From contig JAPEUD010000100.1 of NCBI GenBank assembly GCA_026026165.1, positions 1-64,000 of the forward strand: a DNA stretch of 64,000 nucleotides. Reading direction: 5' to 3'. The notes under the pieces are model-generated. The model saw only the letters and a program-made list of their open reading frames with translations. It had not been told where the DNA came from and did not search any database. This document shows positions 26,350-63,718 of the stretch, in pieces. The position numbers and the translations under genes were made by a program. Origin of the DNA: Sarea resinae. Its lineage: Eukaryota. Within the stretch, counting starts at the first letter, position 1, and every line of letters starts with the position of its first letter.

Positions 26350-26402
26350 AAGCCTCGAAGCCGCCGGCTGCCGCTTTGCCAAGCTGGAATGCGTAATGCG
26401 CA

Positions 26403-40628: not shown

Positions 40629-41101
40629 GCAAATCATTACGGTGTCAAGGTGAGCAATAGCAAGCCTTGTCTGAAGCAAGATGTCTGACTACTATTTGAG
40701 GTTAAAGGTACGAATTCTCGGATCGCGATCGTCTACTGGCGACCAGCACATGGCTTTTCGAGAAGCGATTTCTCTCACAGATCACGAACCTGCGGGAAGA
40801 GAGGGATGTTAAATTTCATGACCGTTCTCTAGGCGGCGCATGATGATCGGCTGCAGAGTCAGATCTCTACCTAGTAGGTGTGGGGGACCGCAGAACGGCA
40901 TGGAGATGGAGTTGATGACGTGATTTGGCTCGTTCATGGCTCATCGATTGACACACGCGGTCGCCATGTCGCCATCACCAGCTCGGAAGGCCGACACCTT
41001 CCTCAAAAGTCGAGCATTTCCAGTGGAGTCGAGTTTCTTTCGGAGATGGCAAAGTTTGGCCTATCGTCGGAGAGAGAGAAACGCGGAAAACAAAGGCGAC
41101 A

Positions 41102-42652
41102 ATGGCATCGACGGCCCAACAACCCAAGGACGAACCCGCCACCACTCAGGCGGAGGATGAGAAACAAGCCAACGTCAGAACCATACCCGTCAGCCCCCCA
41201 ACCGGAGGCGATGGAGCGCTACAGCTTCTGGCCGCCGCCAGCACAGACGGGTCTATTGATCTCGAGGCATCAAGGCGGCTGGTGCGCAAGATCGATCGAT
41301 ATGTGATGCCACTGATCTGCATCGTGTATTTCCTCCAGTATCTCGACAAGATCGCCATCAGTTATGCCAGCGTGACGGGTCTCCGCCAGTCCGCGCACCT
41401 GCATGGAAACCAGTTCAATTGGGTCTCGAGCATGTTTTTCTTCGGCCAGCTGGCCTTTGAGTTCCCCACCATGCGACTGCTTCAGGCCTTTCCCCTGGCG
41501 CGGTACGTGGCGTTCAATGTCACCGTCTGGGGCATCATACTGGCGTCCATGGCCGCATGTCATTCGTTTGCCGCGCTGATGGTCTGTCGTGCATTGCTGG
41601 GAGTTGCCGAGGCTGCCATTGTGCCCGCTTGGGTGGTCTTCACGTCGCAATGGTATCGGAAGGAGGAGCAGGCATTTCGGGTCGGCGTGTGGTTCTCCAT
41701 GTGCGGCCTGGCGCAAATGATCGGAGGATATGTCGCGTACGGCGTGGCGACCCACATTGGAGGGGATCCCAGCGCCTCTCTTCGGGGATGGCAGGTCATC
41801 TTCCTCATTTTGGGCCTGTTCACCGTCGTCATTGGAATTCTGTTCTTCTTCATCCTGCCGGACTCACCCGTCACGGCGGGCTTCCTGTCGCCGGCCGAAA
41901 AGGCCATGCACGCGGAGCGCCTTCGAGGGAACGAGCAAGGCATCGGCAGCACCGTCTTCAAGAAAGCCCAGGTCTACGAAGCCCTCCGAGACCCGCATAC
42001 ATGGCTATACTCATTCTGGGTCTTGGCGGCCAACGTGCCCAACTCAATTGCAACCAGTTTCGGCAACATCCTCGTCTCCGGCATGGGGTACTCGGGCACT
42101 CGAAGTCTGCTGCTCGTGACTCCTCTAGGCGCATATGAGCTGGTGGCATTGATCGGTCTGACCTATCTCGCGACCAAGACGGAACAACGACTGCTGTGTT
42201 GTATCGCGGGCCACATCCCCTCGTTCGTAGGCGCAATTCTCATGGCTACGACAGACGGCGCCCCCGCCCTCGTAGGCTACTACCTCTCAGGCGGGATTCC
42301 AATCGGATGGACGACAATTCTAGGCCTCACAAGCACCAACGTCGCCGGCTCGACAAAGAAAATCACCGTCTCTTGCATTCAGACGATCGCCTATACGGTG
42401 GGAAACATCATCTCTCCTCAGACGTTTCAGTCAAAAGATGCGCCAAGGTATTTGCCTGCTAAGATCTCAATCGTGATTCTGTACTTTTTTATCACACTTG
42501 ATCTGTGTCTGATCCGCTGGCTGGATATCCGGGAGAATCGGAGGAGAGACAAGGCAAGGGAGGCGGAGGGCGAGGAGTATATTATAAGACTAAACCACGA
42601 GTTTTTCGATTTGACCGATCGGGAGAATCAAGAGTTTAGATATGTGATTTAG
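41102..42652 (+). CDS. MFS transporter, Dal5/allantoate permease (ACS) family, intronless
   Basis: LVRKIDRYVMP...LQYLDK; SQWYRKEEQAFR; NVAGSTKK; C-terminal FFDLTDRENQEFRYVI; about 12 hydrophobic segments. Confidence 0.92.
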   Translation: MASTAQQPKDEPATTQAEDEKQANVRTIPVSPPTGGDGALQLLAAASTDGSIDLEASRRLVRKIDRYVMPLICIVYFLQYLDKIAISYASVTGLRQSAHLHGNQFNWVSSMFFFGQLAFEFPTMRLLQAFPLARYVAFNVTVWGIILASMAACHSFAALMVCRALLGVAEAAIVPAWVVFTSQWYRKEEQAFRVGVWFSMCGLAQMIGGYVAYGVATHIGGDPSASLRGWQVIFLILGLFTVVIGILFFFILPDSPVTAGFLSPAEKAMHAERLRGNEQGIGSTVFKKAQVYEALRDPHTWLYSFWVLAANVPNSIATSFGNILVSGMGYSGTRSLLLVTPLGAYELVALIGLTYLATKTEQRLLCCIAGHIPSFVGAILMATTDGAPALVGYYLSGGIPIGWTTILGLTSTNVAGSTKKITVSCIQTIAYTVGNIISPQTFQSKDAPRYLPAKISIVILYFFITLDLCLIRWLDIRENRRRDKAREAEGEEYIIRLNHEFFDLTDRENQEFRYVI

Positions 42653-43325: not shown

Positions 43326-44051
43326 TTACGAATCGCTCTTCCTAGCTAGAATCCACAAGAACTGCGCATTAACCGCGTCTTCCACCGTCTCCTGCACGAC
43401 CACTTCCAGCCCCGCCTCTCTCACCTTCTCCAACGTCGCTTCGCTTCCCCAGCCACTCCAAAACATCCACCCCTTTTCTTCCTGCAACCAGGTCTGCACC
43501 TCCCTGCCCGCCAACTCTTCCGCCGCGAAGTTCACCAGCACCCACCCGCCCGGCTTCAGCCACGCCACGATCTCGCGCAGCATCTCGACTTGCTCGGCGC
43601 GCGGGAGGTGGATGATCGAGTACATGCCAACGACGGCGTCGAAGGTCGCGGGCGCGAAGTCGAGCGCGAGCATGTCGCCCTCGAGCAGCGTGAGGCGGCC
43701 ATGGGCCGGGCCGGGCGGGTCGGGCAGCAGGCGGGCGCGGGCGAGCGCGAGCTGGGCGCCGGAGAGGTCGTTGGCAGTGATGGAGAAGTTGGGGTAGGAG
43801 AGCAGTTTCTGGGTGACGGGGATACCGTAGCCGCACCCGATCTCGAGCACGGAGACGGGGGTCGAGGAGGTCGTGGGCAGGCGGCTGAGCAGCTGGTCCA
43901 GGTACCGGAGGCGCGTGGTCGAGTGCGGGATCGTCCATTCGTTGTATCTCGGGGCGATTGCGTCGTAGGAGGCTTTCATGCGGGATTTGAGGTCAGCAGG
44001 GGGGTCATATAGAGGTTTGGGATCGAGCGGTGGAGCAGTTTGCTCAGCCAT
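43326..44051 (-). CDS. Class I SAM-dependent methyltransferase, intronless
   Basis: SYDAIA; motif I VLEIGCGYG; GDMLALDF..ATFDAVV; WLKPGG. Confidence 0.88.
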   Translation of the reverse strand: MAEQTAPPLDPKPLYDPPADLKSRMKASYDAIAPRYNEWTIPHSTTRLRYLDQLLSRLPTTSSTPVSVLEIGCGYGIPVTQKLLSYPNFSITANDLSGAQLALARARLLPDPPGPAHGRLTLLEGDMLALDFAPATFDAVVGMYSIIHLPRAEQVEMLREIVAWLKPGGWVLVNFAAEELAGREVQTWLQEEKGWMFWSGWGSEATLEKVREAGLEVVVQETVEDAVNAQFLWILARKSDS

Positions 44052-44474: not shown

Positions 44475-46399
44475 CTAGGTAGGGATAACTGGAAGGGTGA
44501 TATAGTTTAGATATCTAGGTCCAAAGGATATATGGTTCGTCCCTTGCAACTTCTCTTCTGACCTGTGAGGAAAGGATTGATTAGTCGCTGCTTCTGTCTC
44601 CAAATATTTTAAGGGGTTGAAGGAAAATATACCTGTCGGTCGGGTCATTGTGCTGGAAGATGCCCGAGCCTTGTGTGTCGCCCGACGCGACCTCGAAGAC
44701 GAGCTTGCCTCCCTTCTCCACCACCACGTTCGTGGGCCACACTTCAACGTCGACGGGGTACACCTCACCCGGTATGACGGGCTGGACATCCGTCGAGTAG
44801 TAGTCGCGGTGCGGGAGCCAGGGACGATGCTTTGGGTGACTGGCGTTGACGTGGCGCAGACTCACCCTCAGCCAGCCTTTGGTGAGCGGGACAGCGTCGC
44901 CGGCAGTGCCGGTATACAAGACCTCATTTCCGGCGGGCGAAAGGTGACGAAGAGTGACGAAGAGGTCAATATCTGTAGGTACTGGGCCGAGGCGGTCTGC
45001 GCTCACCGAGACGTTCAGGTGAGCGACGACGTTGCCTGTGATCTCGGTCTCTTCTGCAAACGCGGGAGTCTGGAATTGCACCAGAGAAGGATCGTCCAAG
45101 GTCCCCAGAGCTCGATAGCTCAGTTTAGATGGCGGCGTGCTTTCCGAAGGCGGTTCCGGAAGGAGTTCTCGCGCTGACGTCAGGTAGAACTTCGTATATT
45201 TGGTCCGCGCGATTGGCCATTCCCATTCCGTGCGCCGTGGGAACGACTTTTCTGCCTCGGCGTTATTGAAGCCTACGTCTCCTTTCCGCAAGACGAGATC
45301 GATCGGCGGGAGCTTCCCTTTGACTGACCAGCCGACTCTGTCGTCGCCCTTGAGAAAGGCATCGAGGAAACTTCTCTGCACTTCGACTTCTTCTTTGTAG
45401 TAAAATGGCAGGTCGTGGCGACCAGTGACGAAGCGGAGATATTTGAGGTCGGAGCCGGCGTTGACGTATCCCTCGATGTTTCCCCGGAGATGCAGAAGAA
45501 TCCCGCCCCAGTTGCCGACCGTCAGGAGAGGTACCTTGATGTCTGCCATGTCGTACTCGCGCGAGGCGTAGTAAGGATCGTCGCGGAAGTGGTTGTCGCG
45601 ATTGTCGATGTTTTGATCGCGTCGGTTTCGGGCCAGCACGTCTTCATCTAGGTCGCCTTCGAGTGTGTCGGGGCCCCAATTACGGGCTGCGCGACCGGGG
45701 CGTCCATATTGATTTGTGATGACTTGGCGCTCCCACCAGAACCGGATGAAAGCGTTCGAGAAGATGCCACCATGGCGACAACGATCGCGGTAATAGTCCG
45801 ACATGCCCTCCCACGGGATGATGGCTGCTAGTCCCTTCGGCTGGCGCGCGGCCACTCGCCACTGGGAGCCAGCGTAGTAGCTGATTCCCAGCAGGCCAAC
45901 CTTGCCGGAGCTCCATGACTGCTCGGATGCCCATTCTACCAGGTCGAAGAAACACTCGCTCGTGCCGCGCGACATGGTATCCAGGAAGCCGGGGGACTGC
46001 CCAAGACCTCGTTCGTCGGCTCGCACAATGGCATAGCCATGCCCAGTCCAGAAGCCGGGATCGGGCGTCTCCCAGGCCGAATGGGCCGAGTGATGCTCTT
46101 CGTTGACTTCGGCGAATGACTTGCCGTGGAAACTGCCCTTTGTCAGCACCTAATTGTTGCCATCGTCAACCAAGAGTAGACGAGTAGACGACTGACTCTT
46201 TGTAATGGATATCTTTTCCGTATGGGCCGTAGGTGACCAGCACTGGTACGGGACCCGATGTCTTGGGCCTGTATACGTTGCAGCGGATCTTCCCCGCTTG
46301 GCCATCGTTGAGCGGCACCGTCACATTTTGCTCATACACGTATGGGAACGACTTCTCATCAATAGAATAAATGTCCTTTACCTGGAGATGGGTGGCCAT
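44475..46399 (-). CDS. CocE/NonD family serine hydrolase (peptidase S15 / PepX_C)
   Basis: CNVYRP...PVLVTYGPYGKD; WETPDP; DERGLGQSPG; nucleophile GISYYA; C-terminal jelly-roll with KGWLRVSLR and EVWPTNVV; introns near 46198-46134 and 44632-44563. Confidence 0.9.
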
Positions 46400-46806
46400 C
46401 GTGATCTATCGAATTCTCAATCGGCTGGCTGACAGGGTATCGCGGTATTCGGGCGGATAAGATCCAAACGATAAGATGGAGGCCGGAGCAGAGGCTGAAG
46501 GTTTTGTAACCCCGCGATGTCCAGTACGCCGATAGAGGCGTCAGCTGGAGTTGCCCTCATGGCTCTCGATGTTCTCCCTTTACTAATGGAGATCCCTGGA
46601 TATCCCAGGGGCAGATGGGTCGCTGTCGGGATGTGGGGGAGAAGGGTGTCGATGTGGTCCCGAAGGATGACATCAACGGCCTGGAGTCCATCACCAACCG
46701 ACTGACTCCTCGCTGCTGGAAAGCCTCAATTCCGTGTCGTCCACTATTGCCCTTGCACCCTCCCCTGGGTTGACCTGTTCGCCCCGCTGGTGGAACCGCC
46801 CAGCTA

Positions 46807-46824
46807 TTCCCCACATTTCCCCAC
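46807..46824. promoter_or_regulatory. Tandem TTCCCCAC boxes in the hydrolase/monooxygenase divergent promoter
   Basis: TTCCCCAC at 46807 and 46817; similar tandem boxes at 49595-49611 and 54389-54410. Confidence 0.5.
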
Positions 46825-47099
46825 GTCCTCCGCACAATGCATCGCGCAAGGATCGAGTGTGACCAGGCTTCCATCCCAGTCTGGCTAGGACCAGGCGGGC
46901 TGCTGCCAGCTTGCCCCCGAGTGAGATAGTGATTGCAAAAGGGAGAGTAGAGGCCTGCGGACGGAAGGATGAATCGCGCCCGTTTCATCAACCTACCAAC
47001 AGATAGGCATCCGCTCTCTCAGAATATATTCATCTTCTGTACCTATCCTGTTGATTCTGGTATGAGTGTCAGGACAAATTCTTGCAAATTCTTAACGCC

Positions 47100-49431
47100 A
47101 TGCCCCAACGTACGCCCAATCACACTGTTCCTGCTGCCATAGGCAAGGCCAATGGCTCAATCGAAGAGAAGACTCCGCTGCGCGTCGTGATCGTGGGCGC
47201 GGGAATCGGTGGCTTGACGGCTGCCATCGCCCTTCGCCAACAGGGCCACGAAGTGGTATTACTTGAGCAGTCTCGTTTTGCCAACGAGCTCGGTGCAGCT
47301 GTCCATCTAGCGCCCAACTGCAATGGCGTTCTGCGACAGCTTGGCATCTTCCCGGAGGACTTTGGAGCCAACAAGATGGAAAGAGTAGAACCCTATGTTC
47401 TCAGTCCCGAGAAGCGCATCATAATTAACAAGTTTTTAGCTCACCGAATACACCGCCGACGGTAAACTGGTGCGATCGATATCGCTCAAGGAGGCCAATA
47501 GCATGTGGCAGCATTCGTGGCTTCTAGCTCACCGAGTGCAATTGCACAACGCGCTCAAAGTCGCAGCAACCAGTACAGAAGGTAAAGGCAAAGCCGCAGA
47601 GCTACTCACCTCTAGCAAAGTGGTCAGCGTTGATCCCGAGATGGCCACGGCAACTCTTGAGGACGGCCGGAAGTTTGAGGCAGATATCATCATTGGTGCC
47701 GACGGGGTCCACTCAAAAGCAAGGAAGATTGTGGCCGGAGAAGATGTCGAAACCTTTTCCTCCGGGAAGAGTGCATTCCGATTTCTTTTCAACAGAGACG
47801 AGGCTGCTGCTGATCCTATCACGGCCAAGTTCGTGCGTGAAGATGGCGATCTAATCATGTGGATGGGTGATGACCGCCGGATTTGCGTGTATCCCACTTC
47901 AGCCAATACACAGCTGAACTTTGTCTGCATTCATCCGGATAGAGAGAGCCATGCCTCGAGCGAAAGTATGTACAGGCCCTTTCAAGGGGTACTACAATTG
48001 GTGCTGACTTGGTGAGACTGGGAACAAAGCAGCAGCAGAAAACTGCTTCTCGATGTGTACCGAGATTTCAGTGAAGACATCCGCACCCTAATCAGTAAAG
48101 CCAATCCAGATACACTGAAGCTCTGGCAGCTTCTAGACATGCGCGTGCTGTCTAGTTGGACAAAGGGCCGGCTAGCACTATTGGGTGACGCCGCACACCC
48201 ATTCCTACCTCGTAAGTTTCCCGTGGCTAATTATTTTTGCTTTAGACACTAAACCTCTCTCTCTCTATCTCCTACAGATCAAGGCCAAGGCGCTGCTCAA
48301 GCGATAGAAGATGCCGCAGCTCTGGCGACCGTCCTGCCCCTCGGCACTCAGCCCGATGAGATCGCCGAGCGACTGAAGCTCTATGAGAGGTGCAGAATGG
48401 ATCGTGCAAACAAGATCCAGCAGTATACCCGTATGGCCGGGCGAGATGCGTCAGAAACGGCGGATGGCAAAGGCATCGATATCGTTGAATATACTACTTT
48501 CAACTTTGGCCATGACGAATTTCATCACTCGAGAAATGAATTGCGAAAATGGCTTGCAGCCAAGAATCCCCATGTCTTTCAACGCATGCCGATAGGGTTT
48601 GGGCCGATGCCTGGCCCTCGTCAGTCGCACCATGGCCTGCCCCGAATAGGCGCTGATTCCACCTTCACAACCGCATCTATCAAGTTCAAAACTTCGCGAA
48701 CTCTGCTCCAAACGCTGCTGCCTTCTGATTCGTTTTCATTTAAATCCCCGGCTACGGTATGCTACGCCAGCTTCATACAGACGACGCTTAATGGCATGGA
48801 GTGGCTCGGTGGTTCTGGCTACAATCATTTCGGCCTCTACATCCACGGTGTGCAGTACAAGAAGCGAAACGGGGAGATGCTTAATGGCGCGTACTTACCC
48901 GTCCTATTTGAGGATCTCGCCGACCCAATCCTCAGCGGCCGCGAGGAGCTGGGCTTTCCAAAAGTCTACTGCGATCTGGACGTCTTCAGGCTCCGAAATT
49001 CCTACCATCTGCACGCGGGCTGGAAAGGTACCAACTTCGCTCATCTGGCATTAGAGGATCTGGAACTTGTCGAACAAGGTGCTGCGGCAAAAGCCAGCGA
49101 TAATTCACCTGCTACAGCCAGCCATGATGAAGGCATCTTGATATACAAATACATCCCCGCAGTCGGTGCCCGAGGCGTCGCTGACGCCGAGTACCCAGTC
49201 TTTGCACCCTTTGCCGAAGATGCAAACTCCAAACCTTCTTCTTCCATTCTCAGAACATATAGAGCGAAGAAATCGTCGATTCAGATCGAGGGAAAGGACT
49301 GGGATGCGTTGCCTACCCTTCATCATATTGTTGGGGCACTGGCAGAGGTTCCGACATATGAGATTGTGGAGGCGAAGGTTGTGGAGGGGAAGGGGGTATC
49401 GGATTTAGCGACGGCGAGGAGGATTGAGTGA
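47100..49431 (+). CDS. FAD-dependent monooxygenase fused to a C-terminal acetoacetate decarboxylase-like domain
   Basis: VVIVGAGIGG, IIGADGVHS, LLGDAAHPFLP|HQGQGAAQAIED, continuing in the same exon into RMPIGFGPMPGPRQ...PVLFEDLADPILSGREELGFPK; introns ~47385-47439, 47967-48017, 48212-48277. Confidence 0.88.
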
Positions 49432-50472
49432 GGAATGGTTTCCAATTGGTTGACCTATGTAATCTATTTTACTATGGAATGAACCTATATCCTCTATTTG
49501 TGCGCCATTGTAGATGGAGTTAAAGCAATCTACCTACTGCGCAGGACGAAAAGGGTAAAACAAACAGGAACGCATTTACTGCCTGCCCGACAATTTCCCC
49601 CACTTCCCCACATCGGCAACCGGCGACTCGCCTCCGCGATATTCAAGACCCTGACAGGGACCATTAGTCTATCCACCCACCCCCCCTCTCCACCCCGTCC
49701 CGGCTCCTAATCACTTTTACTCTAATCTTTCATTTCGCATTAGTCGACCTTGACTGACTCCCCTGTATCTCCCTGCAGACAGAACGTCCCCACTTCTTCG
49801 ACCGCCCCAGTGTCTTGACAGCCGCTGAATACCCCGGACCAAGGAGGAGCCGGGCCTCCGGGGGAGTCTTGGGCCTTAGGAAGGAAGGTACAGATCGATG
49901 TGATATGATGTGGTAGAATGTGGTGGTGGTGGGGCCGGGCCGTGAGTACAGCTATCTGAGTTTCACGCCCACAGTGGGAGAGAAGGGTGTGTACGCTCTC
50001 GCTCTCTCTTTCTGTCTCTCTTTTCTCTCTTTCTCTGCTATTTTCTAGTCCGTGGCGCTCTCTATTCTCTGTCTTATTATTCCTCGCCGGGCCAACGCAC
50101 CGATAAGAGCAGCGTAAAAGGTCAGTCAGTCAAATCGGATTGGACCGGATTAGATCAAGTGTCCCCCCCTCTGCTCTCTCCTTAAAGCTCAACTCGTTCT
50201 ATCTAACACCAACTGATAACATATCTCAGATAGAAAAAACAGCGAGAGAAAGGGAGACTAGAGTGTTGTTATCCTCTTTCTCCAATACTTTCTGCGTTGC
50301 CTAGGTAGTTAATCTACAGTCGAAGATTATTGCTACCTATCTACCTACCTACCTACCTACTATTTGAATCTCGCTCGCTCCATCTTTCGCACTTATCTTT
50401 TCTCTTTGGAACACAGAAGAAAAGGATATAGAATAAGAAAGACGAGGAATTCAAAAAGGACGGAAAGTAGAC

Positions 50473-51081
50473 ATGTCGACCCCCACACCCACCACCAACG
50501 ATCTCCGCCCGTTCTCGCGACACATCACCACGCACGACCCTTCAGGGCACGCTGTCTTCTCTTCCGCCCTCCCGCCCACCGTCCCGCCCACCCACGCCGG
50601 CGGTGCCCTCTTCCACCTCGCCTACACCACCACGACCTTCCCCACCCAGCTCTCCGTGCCGGCCGCCACAGCCACAGCCGCAGGCCCAACAGAAACGGAC
50701 ATCTCAACCTACACGACGCACCTGACGCAGTCGCCGCCGGGCCTGACCATTTCCTCAGGCACCGTACTGCGCGTTGTGGATTTCCCGCCCGGCATGTCCT
50801 CGGCCATGCACCGCACGCAGAGCCTCGACTACGCGGTCGTGCTGGAAGGCGAGGTCGAGATCGCGCTGGACTCGGGCGAGAAGAGGTCGCTGCGCCGTGG
50901 CGACGTCGTCGTCCAGAGGGGCACCAATCATGTCTGGAAGAATGTCAGCGAGCCCGCAGACGGAGAGGGCGGCTGGGCCCGCATGTTGTATGTGCTGGTC
51001 GCTGCTGAGCCCGTCGAGGTGGGCGGTAGGAGGCTAGGCGAGGAGTTGGAGGGTATGCAAGGCGTGAGGGCGAGCGAGTAG
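50473..51081 (+). CDS. Cupin-domain protein
   Basis: RHITTHD; VVDFPPG...MHRTQSLDYAVVLEGE...GDVVVQRGTNHVWKN. Confidence 0.88.
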   Translation: MSTPTPTTNDLRPFSRHITTHDPSGHAVFSSALPPTVPPTHAGGALFHLAYTTTTFPTQLSVPAATATAAGPTETDISTYTTHLTQSPPGLTISSGTVLRVVDFPPGMSSAMHRTQSLDYAVVLEGEVEIALDSGEKRSLRRGDVVVQRGTNHVWKNVSEPADGEGGWARMLYVLVAAEPVEVGGRRLGEELEGMQGVRASE

Positions 51082-51730
51082 TGAGATAGTAAATGAGACA
51101 ATATGTGTGAATGATGGTGGCAATATCAAACGGCCAGCAATCTGAATCTGCCGCTCTTTCAACAATAGAGAATATTTCTGTCTGTCTTTACCACTAAGTA
51201 GTATATCAAGTGTGCTTTGATCTAGTTTCAGTAATACATGGCAGGTTGTATTTCCCACCATTTTTATGACATTACTGAAATATTCTTTTGAGGAAAGGTT
51301 TCTTGTTCGTTATAAGAAGCGGCGATGTCACGTATCTTGTTTGTGAATGTTTGGACTAAGAGAGGAGAATTTTTGTCCTTCTTTGTAGTAGTGGTGGGCT
51401 TTGCCTTCTCTTTTTGCAATACTAGAGATAGATGGATACTAGGTAGACAGGTTAGGTATATATTTCAAACCAGCAAGATATCACGCACATCAAGAAGAAC
51501 AAGAATAAGAATGCCTCCAAATAGCCCTCACTAACAGCATCAAAAAAAGACTAATTCCTATTTCCGTTTCCTCAATTCCATCCCCGATACTCCTACGCTG
51601 GCTTATTTTGTGCTCCCGACCGGAGAGAAAGAGAAATGCGCCAGCCCCCAGCACATCCCTCCCTTTCTCGTCGCGACAAGCGTCGATTCAGCTTATTCCG
51701 TTATTGTAGTTGTATTCCCGTGGCAACTTT

Positions 51731-52214
51731 CTACCACTCGCCGCCGATCTGGTACCGGAAGGCGCCGGGGAAGAGCTTGCCACCTGTGGAGCTCCATGCG
51801 CGGGACACGGTCTATGTAGATGGGAAAGGAGGGAGCATCAGCGTCAGTCTCGTCACTTCGTTTTAATATAAAACAACACCACACAATTCTAAACAAACGA
51901 AGAGCAAGAATCCAACTCACCCCATTGATCCGGACGCCGTGCAACATAATGAATATGATTCCTGTCTCAAACCGGTTGCCGCCCCATGGCCGCTCGGCCG
52001 GATTCAGAGTTGTGTTCAGCGGGCGGTAAGAGGGAATGCGTCGGTGGTCGTGCGGCCAGGAGGGAGGGTTGTCGTTCGGTGCGAGCTGGGGCGGAATTGA
52101 GCGAGCGTTGGGTGGCTGCGGGGGGTTGGCATCTCCGCTATGGTGAAGCTCATAATCGGAGAGGAGCGTCGTGAGGTGTGTGCTCGTCGGGTTGGTGGTT
52201 GTGGTTACTGACAT
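51731..52214 (-). CDS. Small hypothetical protein (124 aa)
   Basis: Exon 52214-51921, intron GTGAGT...TAG 51920-51812, exon 51811-51731: ...RRIPSYRPLN...ERPWGGNRFETGIIFIMLHGVRING|TVSRAWSSTGGKLFPGAFRYQIGGEW*. Confidence 0.72.
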
Positions 52215-52827
52215 AGTGGTTGTGGCGGTGGTGATGGTGGCCGTCGTGACAAGCTTTCAGGAACCTGAATCCTTACAACGCGAGCGCGGCAGTGCGAAGA
52301 AGGCTGGTCATCAACAGAAATGTGAGTCTTTTGTTCGTCAATATGATCAATGAGATAGAGATATGGAAGGCGTATGGTGTGTTTGGATTGGAAGGCGTGC
52401 GAATAGATTCGGAAAAAAGCAAACGAACCCCGACGCTCATCGACGGCGATAGCTACACAGCTCGAGGCAATGGCTGGCCATTCTCCGCCTGGTTCTCTAG
52501 GCGCCATCGATCACATTTCCATAGGGGAACAGGGGAGCAAGGAGGGTGGAGACACCGACGCCGGCCGTGGTGGGTAAATGCAACGGGTGGACCACATCCC
52601 GATGATCGTGATGATGACGAAGAAACAAGCAGGATGCTGGCGATCCAACTATGTATACCCACCGCTCATACACAACTGCTTATGCAGAGAGACAATCATT
52701 GTGCGATTGCCGACAATGACGAGAGGGAGATCATTTCAAGATCATTTCAATGCCATAAGCGTCAGATCTTTGTTCTTTACTTCCCTTTGACTTCCTCGTA
52801 TCACCGTGTCGTGAAATTGGACGAAAC

Positions 52828-53913
52828 ATGCCCGCCCTTACTCCAGGTAAGCAGAAATTTATCTCACTGTGCTCTGTATTTACTTTGAATCTGCCACCAT
52901 GTCTTCTCTTCGGCTGCTGACATGAACCTCCAGTCCATTTCTTCAGTCATGGCTCGACTATGATGCTGGGGGAGCAGACCGACTCGGCGGACTACTGGAA
53001 AGCATGTGGTGATGCGGCGCTGGCGAATGGCGTCAAGGGCATTGTGATCATGGTGAGTTATCCGGATTCGTTCTCGTGTCAATTTCCCAGGCTTCTTTCT
53101 ATCTCCTTCTCCAAACTGCCTCTTCTATTTCCAAACAACATCAACCAACACCAAAATCAACAGGGCGCCCACTGGGATTGCCGCGGTTCTGGCATCGAAG
53201 TGGCCACGAATCCCTCCCCTGCCAAATCCCCCGTCGCCATGGTGCACCCCTCCAAATATGCCTCCTATCCGCTCAAGCCAGACCTTCCCACCGCCGCCCG
53301 CGTCATCGACATGCTCAACGCGGCCGGTTTCTCCGCGAAGCCCAATCCGTCCTTTACCTGGATCCATGACACATATCTGATCCTGATCCGAATGTTCCCT
53401 GCCGGCAACATGCCACCAGCGACGTTGCTGTCGCTCAATGCGCGCATGGACCCGCACTTCCATATGCAAGTGGGCCTAACCCTACGTGGGCTGCGCGAAG
53501 AAGGGTACCTGCTCATCGGCACTGGCGGTGCCGTGCACAATCTGTACCGCAACGACTGGTCAACGATGGTGCGGTATCGCGACAATCTGTCGCAGACGGT
53601 GCCGCCCGAGCACTGGGCGCTGGAGTTTCGGCAGGCGTTCGAAGATGCATTGACGAAGAACTCCGGGCCTGATCTCCGCAGGGCGGTCACGCGCTTGATG
53701 AAGCATCCTGAATTCCGCGAGGCCCATGCTACCGACGACCATTTCATGGCGGCCTGTTTCGTGGCGGGGGCGGCGGGCGGCGTCGAGGATTGGGAAGTGA
53801 CGACGGGCGAGCTGGGCGCCGAGACGTGGGAGCTCAGCAACATGTGTAATAGTCAGTACACGGTGGGCCGATGGCAGAGGGCGCACCCAAAGGCGATGGT
53901 TGGTGTTGTTTGA
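52828..53913 (+). CDS. LigB/DODA-type extradiol aromatic ring-cleavage dioxygenase
   Basis: MPALTP|VHFFSHGSTMMLGE, GAHW, WIHD, GTGGAVHNL, AHATDDHF; introns 52847-52933 and 53053-53163. Confidence 0.88.
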
Positions 53914-54507
53914 ATCTCTGTTCGGTCGAAAGTTCTTTTTCTTTCCTTTTCATTTTTGGTCTATATATGTATATGCCTCCTGAGGCCCAGACGCAAGTAA
54001 ATATCGAGCAAGGACGTTACCATCATCCTCGTTGAATAGATCAAGATCGCGCAAGGGTAATATGGCAGACTAGTCTGCTCACCGACCTAAAGTCTTAGGG
54101 CTACTTGTCTTTGCGTCTGCCTCTCGCACCACCATCACCCAGCGTGACCTGACCATCATATGCTTGATGACAAGAGAACAAGAGAGCACATTAGGGGTCG
54201 ATCTCAGACAACGACCAGCCCTGGGGAACAATGTATGACCGACAGGCTGAGACGATACAGTGGAGGTAGTGTACTCTACTTGAGGAGGATCAGCGTTAAC
54301 GATTCTCCGACTCGACCCTGAAGATGCAGCTGTCAGCCATGTCGCTTGCCGAGGGACCCTCAAGTCTAGCCCTCAGGTCCCGGCGAGTGTGGGGAAGTGG
54401 GGAAGTGGAGCGCGACCGGGCGGCGGGACCTCGCATATCCCCGTGTGGTCCACCTCGGGAAGGCCTGCTAGTCCCAAGTTCAAGCTGGAGACAATCCACT
54501 TTCCAAT

Positions 54508-54556
54508 CGCCGTCCGCCGTCCGCCGTCCGCCGTCCGCTGTCCGCTGTCCGCTGTC
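54508..54556. repeat. 7-bp tandem repeat (CGCCGTC)4(CGCTGTC)3
   Basis: Read directly, upstream of the ALDH-like gene. Confidence 0.9.
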
Positions 54557-54828
54557 CACCCATGACGGGTGCCCCGTGTGCCCCGTCTCCTGGCCATGTG
54601 GTGGTAGATGAAGAAAGGATGAGAAAGATGCTCGGCGTATTGTCATTGCCGAGGGTCACGAAGGTCCTGTCCAAAACAATTGTTAGAAGGAAGCTCGCAT
54701 ACGTTATCCAGGTCATTCAGCACCGTCACTTCATATCTGCGCATCGCCATTGAATGGCCAAGACGGACCATTGTTTGCATTGAATATTTCCGGTTCTGAC
54801 AGTGATCTGGTTTGCTGGATTCGACACG

Positions 54829-56512
54829 ATGCATCCGTCATTTGCTCGTCTCCGCGCCGCAGCCATCGATGGGCGATGCGAGAATACACGCTTCAGACAG
54901 AATCAGCTCAGAAAACTGCATGACGCTCTCCTGGAGAAGGTCGATGCTCTTCGCGACGCCATCATCGACGATTCTGGGACGACGCCATCCGAGGCCGATG
55001 CTGAGTGCTACCTGACCATATCGAGCGTCAAAGAGCACTACGAGAGCTTGGACTTTGAGAAATCCATCCATGATGAATACAACATCGCAAAGGGCAGAGA
55101 CTACTTGAACAGAAAGGTTGGGTACGGAATTGTCTATATTGTTCCAGCCACACATACACTGTCCTACTCGTTAGTGTCACCGGTGTGTGCCGCCATGGCT
55201 GCGGGCAACTGCGTCTGCGTCGAGGTCGGTCCAGTCGTCTTCCTAATCTCAAAGATGAATACCTGACTCCGGCAGTTACCCAATGATCCTCGTGCCAAAG
55301 GTGTTGTGACGATACTGCGGAAGCTCTTGGTGGCAGCGCTCGATCAAGAATCATTTGCCATTCTCGAGAATGCACTCGACGAGTCGGAGCGCTCGCTGTG
55401 CCTGCAAGTCATCCAGGTCCAGGATCGGGCTAGCGGGCCCCCATCCGCACTGCAACTCGTATCTCCATCATCAGCGCTCGCAGTCGCGGTAGTCGACCGC
55501 ACGGCCGATGTCGACGCAGCTGCGAAAGCATTGGTGGCTGCTCGGTTCAGCTTCCGGGGAAGATCACCCTACGCTCCAGACTTGGTCCTCGTCAACGAAT
55601 TCGCCAAAGAAGCTTTCATCTATGCCGCCGTCCAGCACTGTGCCAAGATCCTAGCCTCGACAAACGGCTCGTCCTCCGGAGACGGCAAGGAAGTGGATAG
55701 TCGTTTCGATGGGGAAGATGACAAGAAGGACAGCGTCAGAGTCGTGCTTCAGGGGGCGAATGGCACAATCATCGACATTCGGAACAGGTATGTGGTGATA
55801 TCTTCTTTCCGTCTTTTCTGCGCTTGCTTTACCACAGTTAGGCTGATGCGTTCATATCCTAGAGGCTCGCATCTTCTTGAAAAGAAGACCAGCACAGCCG
55901 TCCTGAAGATACATAGTGTGAGCAGTCTGGACGATGCAATCGACTACACAAACAAAAGGTAGTTCCTCATCCTCTGAAGGGGTTGTTTGGCCTAGATTAA
56001 AAGTTCTCTGCTCCTCCAGTTACCGCAAATCTTCCATTGTCCCACTCGCATCCTACATTTTCGCCGCACCCGGTGCCGCGAAATACCTCTCCCAGTATCT
56101 CGCCTCCTCGATCACGCTTGTCAACAACATTCCCTCGCAACTCCTCGTCGGTCCTGCCGCCCCCGCTTATACCACTCCATCTCTCCAACCTCGGTACTCT
56201 CGCGCCCTTTTTGAGATGACACGACCAGCCATAGTCGACGGGCCACCACAAACCCACCACTACAGCGAAGTTCTCGCGCGTGTCCTGAACACCGATGATG
56301 CAGCTCTATCGTCCCGAAACGGCGGCAGTACTACGGCAGGAGCTTTGAAGAAAGAGATTTTCAAGCCACTGTCGGAAAAGAAGGTCGCGCCTGGCGGTAC
56401 GATTGGATTCTTTGATCAGGGGATTTTGACGGGGCTGGGGTTGATTTTAGTAGGTGTATCTGTGGCTGGTGTTTTCGGCGCAAGAGCTGCCTTGAGCATA
56501 TATCGAGGATGA
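54829..56512 (+). CDS. Aldehyde dehydrogenase-like protein (ALDH3-like outline, degenerate active site, C-terminal TM anchor)
   Basis: FRQNQLRKLH; AAMAAGNCV; AVVDRTADV; ARFSFRGRSPYAPDLVLVNE; SLDDAID; PLASYIF; hydrophobic C-terminus; introns near 55225-55274, 55789-55863 and 55960-56018. Confidence 0.8.
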
Positions 56513-57070
56513 TGCCCCTGGTGGTTTCTAGATGTGATTCTGGATAAGCCCCGAGATGTGGGAAACGAGGCAACCATTCTTGGTCGATCACCCTCGGTCT
56601 CCTCTATTGGCCTTGTTTTTCAGTCTTTATACATGTCGGATACAATACCGTAGAGAAAGACGACAACCTTGAGCAATTCACTTTTTCTCAATAGTATGTA
56701 TAATAGAAGCACGAGCATCCCATCTCCGATGATTACCTGTCGAAACTATCTAAACCGAAAGGAAGGGCTCCCTTGAGGAGCTTCTGTTTGTTCGGGTGCA
56801 GATTGGCTTTCGACATTACCTTAAAGTCCTACGCGGTGTCTTTTTATGTCATTTCAGATGTGGCTAGGGTCCATGTCAAGCGAAATGCACAGTGGCAGGC
56901 CAAGCCACGGTCGGCCCGACCGGCAGTCTGTCAACCCCCCGGAAAATCCCCCACAAAATCTCCCCCGCAATCACATCTCCATTTCAATCCGTTCCACCAT
57001 CTTTGACGACCAATCCATATTGACATGGCACCACCACCGGGACGTCGGATGCTCTGCTGGGTGTTGTAGT

Positions 57071-60000
57071 ATGGCCACTGACGCGTCCGCAGAGGCGGTC
57101 GGAGCTTCCCGAGCCTCGCAGCAGCAAACCCGTAGCTCGCCGTCCACCAGTGCCAAGCAGGACAGAGGGCTCTTCCAGTGCGCCGAATGCAAGCGCAGCT
57201 ATACAAGGCTGGACCATCTCGCACGACATGTCCGCTCCCGTGAGTGAGGTGCCGTCAATGGATTATCACACACTGACGACGCTTGTAGATACGCAAGAGA
57301 AGCCGTTTGTATGCCAGTTCTGCTCTAAAGGCTTCACCAGACCGTATGTATCCATCCCGAGAGACCTGATAACAACGTGCTAATCTTCAACGGCACCCAG
57401 AGATCTCCTCAAACGCCATACCGTGGGCCATGACCCGGGCAGTGACAACAAGCGGCAAAAGCGACAGCATCCATATCGCAACTATCGAGTGTCGAGGGCA
57501 TGTGAGGCTTGTGCGAGGGCGAAGATGAAATGCGAAGAGAATAGACCGTGCGGCACCTGCAGGCGAAGGGGCATCTCATGCGAGTCCGAGCCCGGGATCG
57601 ACAGCACCTCGAGGGACGACTGTCTGGCGATGCCAGCAAGCGGTGAGGATAGTTCGCGACCGAGTAGTACGGAGGTGGTACTGACACGTCGAAAAGATGA
57701 AATACCGGATTGGACTCGTACTTCACATTCCTCTTCCCAGACTCAGATGGCAGTCAATGAATACGATGACACGGACAGTCTTGAGACGATCCAATTGCAA
57801 ACTCCAGCCACATTAGTGCAAGGCAAGAGCCCTCTGCGTCCCGAGATCTGAACTCCATCTAATTCCTTGCCACTGATAGACGAAGATAGAGTTCTGATGG
57901 CGAATGGGAACTTCAGTCACCCCCCGAATAACCCCAGTGATGCGACGACGGCGCACCATTTCGATGCCAATCTCTTAAGGAGCGATCAAGGTGCCCACGA
58001 TCCGTCGTACAATCATTACGATATTGCCAATTTTGGATCGGAGATGAGTCTGGACCTCAACGATATAGATTTTGGCTTCCTGGACGCCCTCAACGGGAGC
58101 ACACCGTTCACGATCGACCCCGCGCAGGACAACGGTGAGGCATCCGAGAGACAAGGCTGTTCGAGTGCGCCCAGAGGGCTTATGCAGCGGATAGAAGCTT
58201 ACAAGAAATCTGGACTTACGCCATGGAATCCCGGCCATCAGGACAATGGGTTTTCGCACCAAAAGCATCTTTCCCTGCCGTCTCACATGGCGAACGAGCC
58301 AGGTTCCAACTTACACGAGATACATGGGCTAGGCCCTGTTGTCGAAGGACTGAAGCCGGGCTCCAGGGATAACATACTTGCAATGATCTTGAGCGGATGC
58401 AAACCTCGCGAGGCCCGTCGAATTGTGTCATCGTTCCCGTCAAACTCGCTATTGGACAGTCTCATGCAGTACTTCTTTGCAACTCAAAAGTCCCAGGTAG
58501 ACTCTTGGATTCACGTTCCCACATTTCGGCCGAACTCGACGAAGCCCGAGCTTGTCGGTGCCATCATTGCCGCTGGCGCCATTCTGACACCTATACTAAC
58601 TATACGGAAATTGGGGTTCGCGTTACAAGAAGCAGTACGGATTGGGATTTGTCAGCTAGTAAATCTTCCTCTTCAAGGCCGATGACGGTATTCTAATGCT
58701 ACGCAGTTTGAGGAGGATAATTCTTTAACCAGAGAGCTTCAGATACTTCAAGGTTATGTTCTCCAGTTAGATCTCGGCCTCTGGAGCGGATGCAAACGAA
58801 AGATGGAATTGGCAGAAAGCTTTGAACAGCCCTTGCTTACTGTATGTGTCGAAACGATTGGTCTACCGTCGCTGACTCGATCTAGATGTTACGTCGAGCG
58901 GGCCGATTCCGCCGATCCACCGAATCTTCCTTTGTGCCCTTATCCTCGGACGAGGGCGAGATCCTTGAGGCGAAGTGGCATCAGTGGGCTAAGCATGAGT
59001 CTTTCAAAAGGTAAGCAATGCCGTCAAAGTGTGTCACCTTCTAAGTTGTATATAGGCTCGTGTTCCATCTGTTCATTCACGATGCCCAGTCGTCAATATC
59101 GTTACTTGTGAACCCACTCATTTCCTATGCGGAACTGGCTCTTCAATTGCCCGACTCTCGAGACCTTTGGGACGCAGAGGACGCTACGCGATGGAAGGGC
59201 TTATATCTCTCGAAGATGCGCAACAATGATGAGAAAAGTCTATCGGCGGTTGATTGTATTCACGATTTGTCCTATCTCGGCGCATACCACGAGCGAATTG
59301 ATTTGCCCTTGTCTACTATGATCGTACTGCACAGCCTCTGGGGGTTGATATGGGAGTATCGTCAATTGAACTCCATCTTAAAAAGTCAGCCTTCGGTATG
59401 GAACGGGCTAGTACTCGATTCCCGTTATCAAGAGCTCTGTCAGGTGGTGAAGAATTCTCGCCTAAGCTACTCTGCATGGAGCGAACACCATCAACGTCCG
59501 GAGATTGACATGTTTCTTGAGCTATTGCTCATGCATCTCGACATGTCCTTTGACGACATCCAGCTCTTTGCCGGAAAAGAAGATCGTGAAGAGGCTTGGA
59601 GAGTGATCCCGTCGTTGCGGCAATGGGTGTCGAGTCCCCGATCTCTTCGGGCAATATGGCATGCTGGCCAGCTTGTGCGAGCCGCCAATCTGTTCCCGGC
59701 AAAGGCCCTACGGGACTTTTATTCAATCTGTGTCTATCAGGCTAGCTTGGCGTTCTGGGCATATTGTGTCTTATCTCGCAGCACGAAAGAGAAAAGCGGC
59801 GATGAAGGTGATGGAAACGGTTGTCGCATGACTGCGACCGATTCTCCATATATCTATCTCGACGGCCCAGATTCGCCCGATGTCCAACGATTCATCGCAC
59901 AGCAGCACGGGACACCCAGTCTTTCAGGTCTGCCATGTGATGAGAGGGTCACGGACGGTGCAAGACTCCCTTCTGTACCTTTGGACGATTCACCCAAAGT

Positions 60001-60124
60001 GATAGAGATGCTCTGCACAATCCTGCGGCGTAATTGTGGCGACGAGCCTGTTCCACCACTGGTTGGAAACTTGATAGATCTGATGCAGGATCTCGGTGCA
60101 GCGGCCACCGAGTCTTACTCGTGA
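57071..60124 (+). CDS. Transcription factor with two C2H2 fingers, a Zn2Cys6 cluster and a fungal TF domain
   Basis: [66 protein letters not shown]...C; SWIHVPTF; multiple short introns. Confidence 0.9.
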
Positions 60125-60747: not shown

Positions 60748-62131
60748 CTAACTATCTAACTCTCTCCACAATGCTCTGAAACGAGCCACTAAGCCCACGT
60801 CAGACACAAACCCCGTTTCGAGAATTTCCAGTGGCCGGACCCATCCTCGAGACCGTAATGCTAGCACCGCCCCCTTCAGCGTAGCCATGAACCACGCCCT
60901 ATCCTGTGAGCCTTCACCTGCCGCAACGGCCCCCAACATCAGTTGACATGAAGTCAGAGTCATGAACAAGCATGGTCTGACTGGGAGCTGGCACCATGCT
61001 TCCCTGAGCTCGCCAGCGAGGAGTGTGAGATTTGCCTCTGGCTGCGGACACCAGGATAGATGGAGAATCAACTCGATCGCTCGTGAAGTTGCTTGGACAA
61101 ACGGATTATCATCGAATCGAAGGGCTCGAGCCTGGCATAATAAGCTGTTCCACCACTTCTCGATTTCTTTGGCCTGAATGTCCGAGCCCGATGAATATTT
61201 GCGATGCCTATCTATCGACTTTCGCAACTGGACGAGGTTGTCGGAGATGTTCGCCACAATACAGATTGGCTGGCTGCCATAAGGACGTATCTTGTCGATG
61301 ATTTTCCTGTGATATGCCAAAGGAAAGTTAAAAACATCGTTTGTAGAATCCCTGGCAAGTTCGTTTAGCTTTGCCTCGATGCAGCAAAGGATATACAGAC
61401 AAAAGGAGGAAATTACATAGCACTGGCGGCACATCAAATTCGCCCTGAGAGCGTCTCTCTGTGATGAGATTGGCAAGGCCATCAACATGAATGTTCCAAA
61501 GAAGGTCATTATGCATCAAGCGCTCTCCGATGGCCATGCTGAGCACTGCCCCAAGAACAGCACCAGTGTGAGCTGTTTCAGATGTGATGTGCTGGACAAT
61601 GAGATTGGCAGCCTTGCACGAGTGGGCCACGGCTTTCTCTTGACATGACGCATCTGGCGACCAGTGCCGGATGCCTATGGCCATGGACACCTCGGCAAGG
61701 GCTGCTTCCGAGACCAGCAGCTGGATCCAGGCTTCTTCATCGGGACTGCTGGGATAATTACCACCGTCCAGAAAAACCAGCGACCAGAATCTCGCAACTA
61801 CAGAAGATTAGCGGCGTATGTGGCCGACCGAGCTCGACCTCGAGGAATCCTTACGGAACTGGGCGTAGCGATACGGATCTTTTGGGGGTGTTGCGAGCGG
61901 CAAGTCTGTTAGCAGAGCATCGGCGGCTCCGTCCTGTGCCAGTTGCCTCTGCCCAATCCGCGCAAGTACACCCCTCTTCGCTTTTTCTTTTGCGGCTTCA
62001 TTTCCGATGATCCGCTGGCGTCTGTTCGCAAAATTCGTCTTGGTGATGTGCGCCCGCATCAGCTTCGCGTCGGATCGAGATAGCGCCGGCGTACCGGTTG
62101 CATTGAGGAATGTGAAGCTCGTTGTGCTCAT
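60748..62131 (-). CDS. Fungal TF-domain-like protein lacking a visible Zn cluster
   Basis: MSTTSFTFLNATG...MRAHITKTNFANRRQR N-terminus, WNIHVDGL; three exons join in frame (introns ~61854-61798 and 61399-61352). Confidence 0.6.
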
Positions 62132-62581
62132 TCTCACTGCCTGCTTTAGGAAAATCAACTTCAGGGTGGTTTATTCCACGGAGTGATGTGGAGCTGTTGA
62201 TATGCCATGTCTGGATGAGGACAATCAATTGATAAGCTCTAGGCGATTAGTGATCGGCAGTGCCCTACAAACGCGGACTCGGATACAGTCGCGTTTGACC
62301 CGGTTAGGAAAATCAGATTCAGACACGCGAGTGGATAGCTTCAACCTAGCGGTAGGCCCGTTGACGGCGACATGTACATACAATACCCACCTTGAACATG
62401 GGCTCGACTGACACAAGTCGCCGACATTTCATCGCTTTGGCGGATGGCCACGATAATAATATATCCCACATGGACATGTATTTATACCTCGGGACACCCG
62501 TGGAGATGTGACTCTCCTGGTCAGGCTATTTGCAGACTTCTAATCGCAAGACTACATTACAATCAACTACAAGTCAATATC

Positions 62582-63718
62582 ATGTCTAGACAATGGATCC
62601 TTGCGAGCCAGGAAGGCTTTGAGGCTTCTCTGCAATATCAGGAGAATGTCAGAATACCATCTCAAGATGAGCTTGGCTCCAATGGGGTCCTCGTGAAAAT
62701 CCATGCCGCCAGCCTCAATTATCGCGAGCTCTCAATCGCAGATCCAAAGGCTAGTAGACTACCATGCTCAGAGTACTTAAGTGCGTGCTGACTCTCTCAC
62801 CGTAACCAGGGTGTCAACGGACCAATCCAGCCCCCTATCATACCGGCATGCGACGGTGCAGGAGTCGTTCTAGTAATCGGATCATCTGTCCAGGAGTTCC
62901 AGCCCGGAGACCGAGTCGTCACACATTCAGCACCGAAGCTTGTGGAATCTAGCGGAGACAATGCGTCCGCAACTCTCGCAGATGCTCCTTTTATGCTGGG
63001 TCAAGGAACAGATGGAACATTGCGTTCCATTGGTATCTTTGCAGAAAAAGCTCTCGTCCACGCCCCTGCATCTTTGAGTTGGCTGCCGGCGGCGACGCTA
63101 TCGTGCACATGGGCGACGGCGTGGAACGCACTCTTTGGAGTAGAAGGCAGAAAGGCCGGGCCGGGTATGTGGGTTCTTGTTCAGGGATCAGGCGGCGTGA
63201 GTGTCGCCACGCTTCAGCTCGCAGCAGCGGCTGGGGCTACGGTAGTGGCCACCACGTCGACCGGGGAAAAAGAAGCCCGTCTGAGGGCGCTTGGAGCGAC
63301 GCACACGGTCAACTATCGCTCAATTCCCGATAGCTGGAGCCAAAAGGCTCGAAGCCTGACACCAGGCGGCATAGGGTTCGATATCGTCGTCGATATTGGT
63401 GGCAACCAGACACTGTCCCAGTCTTTGGCGGCCGTGCGTGTTGATGGGCTTGTGATATTGGTTGGAGCTGTGGGCGAAGACACGGCACCAGTTCCTCTGT
63501 CCGCGGCCTTCATGCATACTTGCATGGTGCGTGGCCTGCTTTGTGGGAGTCGGGCTCAGTTGAAGCAACTTGTGCGCTACATTGACGAGAAGGATATCCA
63601 GCCCGCTGTGGATGACGTCGTTTTCGAGCTTGCAGAGGCTAAGGATGCTTATAGACGCTTGAAGGAGAAGAAGCATTTCTCCAAGGTCGTTATACGGATT
63701 GAGCATCCAGACGCATGA
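62582..63718 (+). CDS. MDR-family (zinc-type alcohol dehydrogenase-like) NAD(P)H oxidoreductase
   Basis: VLVKIHAASLNYRE; PACDGAGVV; AATLSCTWATAWNAL; VLVQGSGGVS; HFSKVVI; intron 62750-62809. Confidence 0.88.

Follow-up and report, generated by a model that had tools for sequence, protein, structure and literature searches.

A conserved seven-gene cluster of Sarea resinae and other Pezizomycotina, with a probable extradiol route for phenolic degradation and a pseudoenzyme paired with a small protein

Seven contiguous genes occupy positions 44475 to 60124 of a 64,000-nucleotide stretch of the Sarea resinae genome (assembly GCA_026026165.1, contig JAPEUD010000100.1, positions 1 to 64,000 of the forward strand), referred to here as the window. 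It is clear that they form a real, widely conserved and functionally uncharacterised gene cluster, and their content makes it probable that this is an ancient, self-regulated cluster of the Pezizomycotina that degrades a phenolic compound, for carbon use or detoxification, by extradiol cleavage of its ring. A preliminary description of the window had proposed meta-cleavage logic in a self-regulated cluster without a backbone gene, and this proposal gains support from the linkage of all seven genes in 10 of the 20 longest related loci and from the presence of a fumarylacetoacetase gene in 8 of the same 20.

All seven spliced gene models are intact and translate without internal stops, and a Pfam scan of their products returned the families named in the preliminary description; the two divergent pairs recognised there (CocE with the monooxygenase fusion, and the small gene with LigB) are likewise present. 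The fusion of a flavin adenine dinucleotide (FAD) monooxygenase with an acetoacetate-decarboxylase-like domain, abbreviated FMO-ADC, is identical letter for letter to a database protein labelled Sarea resinae (P0001), and the small protein is identical to P0467, so that two of the models are backed by independent gene calls. In the transcription factor model an intron has to remove the TGA at 57849; there is a branch site with an acceptor, donors that keep the frame lie at 57643 (GT) and 57823 (GC), and the intron across the TGA is a prediction of the model. The features, in window coordinates, are as follows.

44475-46399, minus strand: CocE/NonD (S15) serine hydrolase, 596 aa; exons 46399-46197, 46132-44633 and 44562-44475
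46400-47099: divergent CocE/FMO-ADC promoter, with three GTGGRG sites and the window's only CGG-N3-GTGGRG (46627-46638)
47100-49431, plus strand: FMO-ADC fusion, 719 aa; exons 47100-47384, 47440-47965, 48017-48211 and 48278-49431
49432-50472: upstream region of the cupin gene, with five GTGGRG sites
50473-51081, plus strand: cupin, 202 aa, one exon, metal-site His motifs kept
51731-52214, minus strand: small conserved protein, 124 aa, without a Pfam family; exons 52214-51921 and 51811-51731
52215-52827: divergent promoter of the small gene and LigB, with one GTGGRG site
52828-53913, plus strand: LigB extradiol dioxygenase of the YgiD/DOPA-dioxygenase type, 295 aa; exons 52828-52846, 52934-53052 and 53164-53913
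53914-54828: upstream region of the pseudo-aldehyde dehydrogenase gene, with four GTGGRG sites, three of them in tandem at 54389-54410
54829-56512, plus strand: class-3 aldehyde dehydrogenase (ALDH3)-like pseudoenzyme, 498 aa; exons 54829-55224, 55276-55787, 55863-55958 and 56020-56512
57071-60124, plus strand: transcription factor with two C2H2 fingers, a Zn2Cys6 domain and a fungal-specific domain, about 917 aa, six introns
43326-44051, minus strand: S-adenosylmethionine-dependent methyltransferase, a neighbour outside the cluster
40952-42652, plus strand: MFS permease, a neighbour outside the cluster

The distribution of the cluster was followed from LigB. A 46-sequence LigB alignment was searched against public metagenome contigs; of the 171 stretches confirmed, the 80 best were retained, and dereplication at 95% left 64 loci, not phylogenetically independent of one another, which were trimmed to 10 kb on each side of LigB; all counts of co-occurrence are therefore lower bounds. 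In the 20 loci of at least 14 kb, CocE is present in 17, FMO-ADC and the factor in 16 each, the cupin in 15, and the ALDH-like and small genes in 13 each. One of the 10 loci with the full set (L061) has the DNA-binding part of the factor only; six genes were found in three further loci, five in one and four in three. The orthologues are thus linked, and the refuting outcome named beforehand, that they would be unlinked, did not occur. Gene order is shuffled between loci and the flanks consist mostly of unrelated housekeeping genes; LigB and the factor stand head-to-head in 30 of the 37 loci that have both, as do CocE and FMO-ADC in 9 of 18. The methyltransferase and the Dal5-type permease, left as possible members in the preliminary description, are excluded, as is a neighbouring zinc dehydrogenase, none of the three being found in any of the 64 loci. 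Genes that do recur there encode fumarylacetoacetase (14 loci), a DHA1-type MFS transporter (13), a short-chain dehydrogenase/reductase (SDR; 4) and a histidinol-dehydrogenase (hisD)-like protein (4).

Accession adjacency extends this picture to named genomes. Cluster genes carry neighbouring tags in Elasticomyces (5524/5522/5517), a member of the Chaetothyriales (g78/g77/g76), Malbranchea (5955/5957), Rhinocladiella (10882/10883) and Alternaria (769/770); LigB and the small gene are two accessions apart in Aspergillus flavus, LigB and FMO-ADC seven tags apart in A. hiratsukae, and the ALDH-like and small genes of Lasiodiplodia are g3637 and g3638. Fused gene calls join FMO-ADC to the cupin in Grosmannia, Zopfia and Saccharata, and to the factor in Cudoniella. 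The genomes with adjacent accessions, which we take to represent Eurotio-, Dothideo-, Sordario- and Leotiomycetes, support linkage in four classes of the Pezizomycotina. Carriers, judged by their labels, include many plant-associated fungi, and also black yeasts and lichen-forming and thermophilic fungi. Cluster-linked FMO-ADC proteins are scattered over the whole family tree (46 rows). Distances between loci correlate between genes in 18 of 21 pairs (permutation p<0.05), although common descent raises every correlation of this sort. The median identity between pairs of loci is 67-71% for LigB, 69-71% for CocE, 56-60% for the cupin and 46-49% for FMO-ADC, and falls to 39-42% for the small protein, 35-37% for the factor and 33-34% for the ALDH-like protein. 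Around 82 bacterial CocE genes (27-39% identical) there were no LigB, cupin or ALDH matches and one weak FMO match, and the set thus appears to have been assembled in fungi. A bacterial origin of the module was considered on account of one locus with CocE, a hisD-like gene and an SDR, and was rejected when the hisD-like link proved to be 1 in 82 on a wider look.

Individual loci add some detail. L052 is 98.5% identical to L054 and L055 over 11 kb and diverges completely just past LigB (from position 11139); L052 and L053 carry the ALDH-small-cupin-CocE-FMO block, L054, L055 and L048 do not, and none of the five has a factor match, a case of block presence/absence or rearrangement between close strains. 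All seven genes and a hisD-like gene lie in L058 (4759-19339), whose FMO-ADC differs very little from a protein of Aureobasidium pullulans. A stand-alone hisD-like gene goes with the cluster in L027, L031, L058 and L069 (4 of 64 loci). It shares 54% identity with a bacterial protein of L087, adjoins FMO-ADC in Aspergillus section Fumigati (P0122), and is possibly a bacterial acquisition that provides a dehydrogenase step; it has no close match in this genome (a 37% match lies elsewhere). In L007 and L011 (~13800-14700), which are independent of each other, the small gene and FMO-ADC are separated by an inserted gene with YWTD/LDL-receptor repeats. About 13 kb past the cluster, the contig end of L174 (500-4290) is AT-rich (GC 21-34%) and without long open reading frames (ORFs), possibly a repeat-rich or subtelomeric border.

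Within the S. resinae genome a single locus was found for each of CocE, the small gene, the ALDH-like gene and LigB of the cluster clade. The one paralogue of FMO-ADC lies on contig C55 and clusters with it in the tree (98/94); none of the other six genes was found near it (~10 kb upstream, 16 kb downstream). This paralogue (C55 ~337600-339700; L004 1607-3706) has a long branch, and its neighbours are an alcohol dehydrogenase, a cytochrome P450, a CoA-transferase III and an AtuA-like gene. The absence of a backbone gene, asserted in the preliminary description, holds: none of the backbone families is present among the scanned window ORFs, and neither polyketide synthase ketosynthase nor nonribosomal peptide synthetase condensation matches occur on this contig (15 and 24 genome-wide).

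Retention of catalytic residues in LigB, the cupin and the acetoacetate-decarboxylase-like (ADC) domain speaks for catabolism. The closest solved relatives of LigB are YgiD and plant 4,5-dihydroxyphenylalanine (DOPA) extradiol dioxygenases (expectation values, E, 5e-14 to 4e-8), from which the cluster proteins are distinct as a separate fungal clade with 58-72% internal identity, and the score against the 4,5-DOPA-extradiol-dioxygenase equivalog NF007914 (76 bits) does not reach the cut-off of 233. Over 46 aligned rows His171 and His239 are invariant, His49 is present in 45 (one gap) and His12 in 37 (eight gaps, one Arg); three of the LigB histidines align with those of 2pw6, and we take the four to serve in metal binding and catalysis. 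The His motifs of the cupin, whose nearest solved relatives are 3es1 and 8x0u, are conserved. The ADC domain matches 3cmb (E 9e-17), and Lys564 and Glu547, presumably the Schiff-base lysine and its neighbouring glutamate, are each present in 80 of 80 homologues; enzymes of this kind can be hydratase-aldolases acting on 2-oxo-enoic acids.

The FAD domain has the fold and motifs of a group A FAD monooxygenase (predicted model, mean pLDDT confidence score 86), and the best structural matches of the model are 8x38, 8gsm and 8r2t (TM-score by target 0.80-0.87). By sequence its best solved relatives are decarboxylating hydroxybenzoate 1-hydroxylases (E 5e-49 to 8e-41, 24-28% identity), the match to a MAK1-like entry being far weaker (E 2e-28). 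Arg242 occupies the position of the active-site His of 8x38, 8r2t and 8rqh, on the strand before Tyr, and among 80 FMO-ADC homologues this position is Arg in 75 and His in none. That histidine is presumably catalytic in hydroxylases of the MNX1/VhyA type, and with Arg242 in its place the domain is not to be filed with these decarboxylating 1-hydroxylases. CocE exceeds the TIGR00976 cut-off (150 bits against 66), its best solved relative being the uncharacterised 3ib3; the Ser150 nucleophile motif is found in 23 of the 26 rows shown (introns break it in the other three) and the His motif in 28 of 28. The expected acid position, placed by motif, is Gly in all 28 rows; the cocaine-esterase alignments stop short of it. 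With the monooxygenase lacking this His and CocE apparently lacking the usual acid, the chemistry of both may depart from the family norm.

From these components a pathway can be proposed. CocE would hydrolyse an aryl ester or a lactone, either at entry or as the pyrone or methyl ester formed after cleavage, and the FAD domain would convert a phenol to a catechol or hydroxyquinol, the ring of which would be opened by the DOPA-dioxygenase-type LigB. The cupin would isomerise the ring-opened product, the ADC domain would form a Schiff base at Lys564 with a 2-oxo acid and then cleave it as a hydratase-aldolase, or act as a decarboxylase, and fumarylacetoacetase, in the cluster in many species, would carry out the last step. 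The bipartite factor would act on GTGGRG, at some sites with CGG three bases upstream. Gene content, linkage, the conserved residues and the enriched motifs are observations, from which we infer every reaction, the order of the reactions, the substrate class and the binding by the factor; the best guess for the substrate is a substituted salicylate or resorcylate, or else a bicyclic phenol of small size, for instance a coumarin or a naphthol.

The shared promoter boxes of the preliminary description can be recognised as GTGGRG, of which there are 14 in five upstream regions (3.8 kb, 3.7 per kb) and 81 in the 64 kb of the window (1.3 per kb). Over 37 loci the box is present in 100 of 114 upstream regions (3.8 per kb), compared with 28 of 110 intergenic-like controls (0.75 per kb), and the composite CGG-N3-GTGGRG in 21 of the 114 (13 of 37 loci), compared with one of the 110. 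CGG is found at a gap of three in 20 of 216 GTGGRG sites against 2 of 169 (p 3.5e-4, for one of 44 spacings tested), and CCG immediately downstream is likewise enriched (26 versus 3); by itself the window's lone composite site is at chance level (1 found, 1.19 expected). By the zinc-finger code the two fingers of the factor would read G(Y)G-GRG; Zn2Cys6 domains usually recognise CGG as their half-site. The boxes fit the C2H2 and Zn2Cys6 domains of the factor as its putative targets, and a first-finger recognition helix R-x-[DE]-H-L-x-R has 36 matches across the loci, the search pattern itself requiring this helix. GTGGRG is also a CreA site, and CreA as the sole cause of the boxes could still apply, although the CTGGRG and CCGGRG variants are not enriched. 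A tandem repeat with a 7-base unit lies in the upstream region of the pseudo-ALDH gene (54508-54556).

The ALDH-like protein is a conserved pseudoenzyme, to judge from its sequence. It matches class-3 ALDH profiles over positions 2-353 (E 1e-33 to 4e-28), but in 71 homologues the column of the catalytic Cys holds Pro in 67, Ala in 2, Val in 1, Arg in 1 and Cys in none, and in the alignments the general-base Glu (ELGGK) and oxyanion Asn motifs are lost. The replacement residues and their neighbours are conserved in their turn (Ser 70, Pro 67 and Tyr 70 of 71), and a hydrophobic segment begins at residue 470. Its gene stands head-to-head with the small gene in 17 of the 17 loci that have both, which makes these two genes, left unexplained in the preliminary description, the most closely linked of the cluster; the window departs from this arrangement, with LigB between them. 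The family of the small protein numbers at least 435 representatives (E<=0.001), has a conserved intron position and lacks a Pfam match. The structural model of the small protein consists of one long C-terminal helix and little else, with low confidence (pLDDT 65, predicted TM-score 0.29), and this low-confidence model has no match among solved structures. Two identities were tried for it and set aside: a LigA-like subunit, since it is head-to-head with LigB in just 1 of 19 related loci, and a TOM13/Mim2 relative, for which scores of 0.80 or less are a lead only and the highest hydropathy value, 1.07, is moderate.

Most likely the pseudo-ALDH and its small partner form a coupled, non-catalytic pair with a regulatory role, which is slightly ahead of a non-redox, aldehyde-binding or anchoring one. 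That the cluster is catabolic and the pair nevertheless has such a non-regulatory part, performing a non-redox step, binding a toxic aldehyde or serving as a membrane anchor, has a little less than an even chance, an estimate that concerns the role of the pair only. The conserved Ser-Pro-Tyr could be a new active site, the hydrophobic C-terminal segment has been retained, and in a study of the tetrahydroxybenzene pathway a short domainless protein was reportedly needed for one step. Against this, the pseudo-ALDH (33%) and small protein (about 40%) have median identities like that of the factor (36%) and unlike those of LigB, CocE and the cupin (56-71%); the ALDH-like protein and the factor have the best-correlated distances of all pairs (rho 0.62, n=10); and pseudoenzyme repressors clustered with activators have precedent (PMC10512348). 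The pseudo-ALDH gene and a gene for a Zn2Cys6 activator are both present in 13 independent loci.

Several observations weigh against an ancient catabolic cluster. CocE apparently lacks the usual acid and the monooxygenase lacks the His of its closest solved relatives, the core has no redox-active dehydrogenase, and related fungal cupins occur in biosynthetic clusters. The loci, dereplicated at 95% only, lack phylogenetic independence; 3 of the 20 long loci hold one or two of the seven genes (two genes in two, LigB alone in one); the LigB and FMO-ADC matches seen in A. fumigatus and A. fischeri sit on separate contigs; and the cluster-type fumarylacetoacetase has no close match in this genome (a 40% match lies elsewhere). 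DOPA-type dioxygenases are known mainly from biosynthesis (PMC12420386), and A. nidulans AN3392 is barely expressed on salicylate, at 2.3 reads per kilobase per million (PMC7842363).

Some of these points would suit a biosynthetic or tailoring cluster without a backbone gene, in which an endogenous or plant catechol is turned into a seco or pyrone product, or a polyketide made elsewhere is tailored; we consider this unlikely. Betalamic-acid and arabidopyrone formation are plant analogues of such products. The nearest solved relatives of LigB are YgiD and plant DOPA dioxygenases, a DHA1-type exporter is present in 13 of 64 loci, DOPA-type enzymes have been described as biosynthetic (PMC12420386), and catabolic and biosynthetic clusters are hard to distinguish (10.1101/184242). 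However, ligase, transferase and backbone genes are missing from the core, no such gene was found among 89 other long ORFs that flank the cluster in related loci, it is a fumarylacetoacetase that recurs as accessory enzyme, and a hydrolase together with a Schiff-base lyase suits breakdown.

Within a catabolic cluster the substrate might instead be an N-heteroaromatic or methoxylated ring (a hydroxypyridine, an indole-type or a syringate-derived compound), with CocE acting on the cleaved product to take off an amide or a methyl ester, a reading we hold to be improbable. Arg at the His site, as in 75 of 80 homologues, would match the pattern of urate and hydroxypyridine oxygenases. Syringyl catabolism in A. 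niger is reported as unknown (PMC12388069). These oxygenases, however, rank below the hydroxybenzoate hydroxylases, and no recurrent amidase or deaminase is found in the loci. The least probable of the substrates considered is the flavonoid or pterocarpan phytoalexin favoured in the preliminary description. Bacterial degradation of the flavanone A ring employs an FAD hydroxylase, an extradiol dioxygenase, a cupin and an FAH-family enzyme (FAH, fumarylacetoacetase), and numerous carriers are plant-associated by label. Nevertheless, hydroxybenzoate 1-hydroxylases rank far above the MAK1-like entry, the best structural relatives act on monocyclic hydroxybenzoates, black yeasts and lichen-forming and thermophilic fungi are also carriers by label, and published pterocarpan hydroxylase (PAH) cluster models differ in content, comprising P450s, transporters and isoflavone reductase (10.1101/184242), all of which are missing from the seven-gene core.

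The window contains other genes of possible interest. A FAD monooxygenase (23023-24297, plus strand), a carbon-nitrogen hydrolase (24639-25451, minus) and a fungal transcription factor (26771-28186, plus) may form a second catabolic mini-cluster at 23023-28186; a cellular RNA-dependent RNA polymerase with a fungal PH-like domain lies at 36915-39909 (minus); and adjoining the cluster a Fungal_trans_2 factor (60748-62170, minus) and the zinc-binding dehydrogenase (62581-63718, plus) form a divergent pair.

Fungal extradiol cleavage is poorly known, and a delimited cluster that has an activator of its own and a candidate binding motif, and that occurs in the tractable Aspergillus and Aureobasidium, makes this gap directly testable. 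The cluster also brings to light a small-protein family of 435 or more members that Pfam does not cover, an ALDH pseudoenzyme that is conserved and regularly mislabelled 'aldehyde dehydrogenase PutA', and a hydroxylase-lyase fusion that is widespread and carries only the annotation 'salicylate hydroxylase'. A bolder proposal, which we regard as doubtful when taken whole, is that this would be the first fungal LigB meta-cleavage pathway, with an ADC-fold aldolase fused to the hydroxylase, governed by a new switch in which a membrane-anchored dead ALDH binds the inducing aldehyde or phenol and, with its 124-aa partner, holds or releases the C2H2-Zn2Cys6 activator.

There are parallels with bacterial extradiol systems that use LigB-family dioxygenases (lig protocatechuate 4,5-cleavage and mhp) and with the nahC-D-E segment of the naphthalene pathway. 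The logic of hydroxylase, extradiol dioxygenase, hydrolase, isomerase, Schiff-base lyase and FAH-family enzyme is common to them and the S. resinae cluster, whereas the enzyme families here (CocE, cupin, ADC and DOPA-type LigB) are different. Among fungi, the 1,2,3,5-tetrahydroxybenzene (gallate) cluster (PMC10832562) and the gentisate/homogentisate clusters also combine an FAD monooxygenase with an FAH-like gene, but use other ring-cleavage enzymes, and deletion of 17 ring-cleavage genes left gallate use unaffected (PMC10512348). Fungal extradiol dioxygenases are described as insufficiently characterised, the sole fungal LigB-type clade being uncharacterised for catabolism (PMC12420386, 2025), and in FAMeDB, a 2026 curated database of fungal aromatic metabolism, there are no LigB, CocE or ADC entries among 408 proteins (PMC13094099). 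The claim that no characterised fungal cluster has this composition stands, in that searches by gene combinations and locus tags found no functional study, subscription journals lying largely outside their scope; nor is the cluster described in the accessible parts of PMC10512309, PMC3689640 and PMC6320622. The closest computational counterpart is the class of dioxygenase-anchored Pezizomycotina clusters for which phenylpropanoid degradation was proposed, with at least five ARD models (10.1101/184242; Gluck-Thaler and Slot, 2017). The present cluster is likewise dioxygenase-anchored and computational and may already be listed there, an earlier computational detection being likely, although the accessible text of that survey offers no pathway, pseudoenzyme or motif. 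For regulation the relevant comparison is with QutA/QutR, GaaR/GaaX and TanR/TanX, in which a Zn2Cys6 activator is likewise accompanied, in a catabolic context, by an enzyme-derived and presumably non-catalytic protein (PMC10512348). Whereas QutR resembles the C-terminal half of AROM (PMC10512348) and repressors of this type derive from AROM domains, the candidate described here derives from ALDH3; it would differ further in its hydrophobic C-terminal segment, its 124-aa partner and an activator with two extra C2H2 fingers. This pairing of a pseudoenzyme with a microprotein is the most unusual trait of the cluster.

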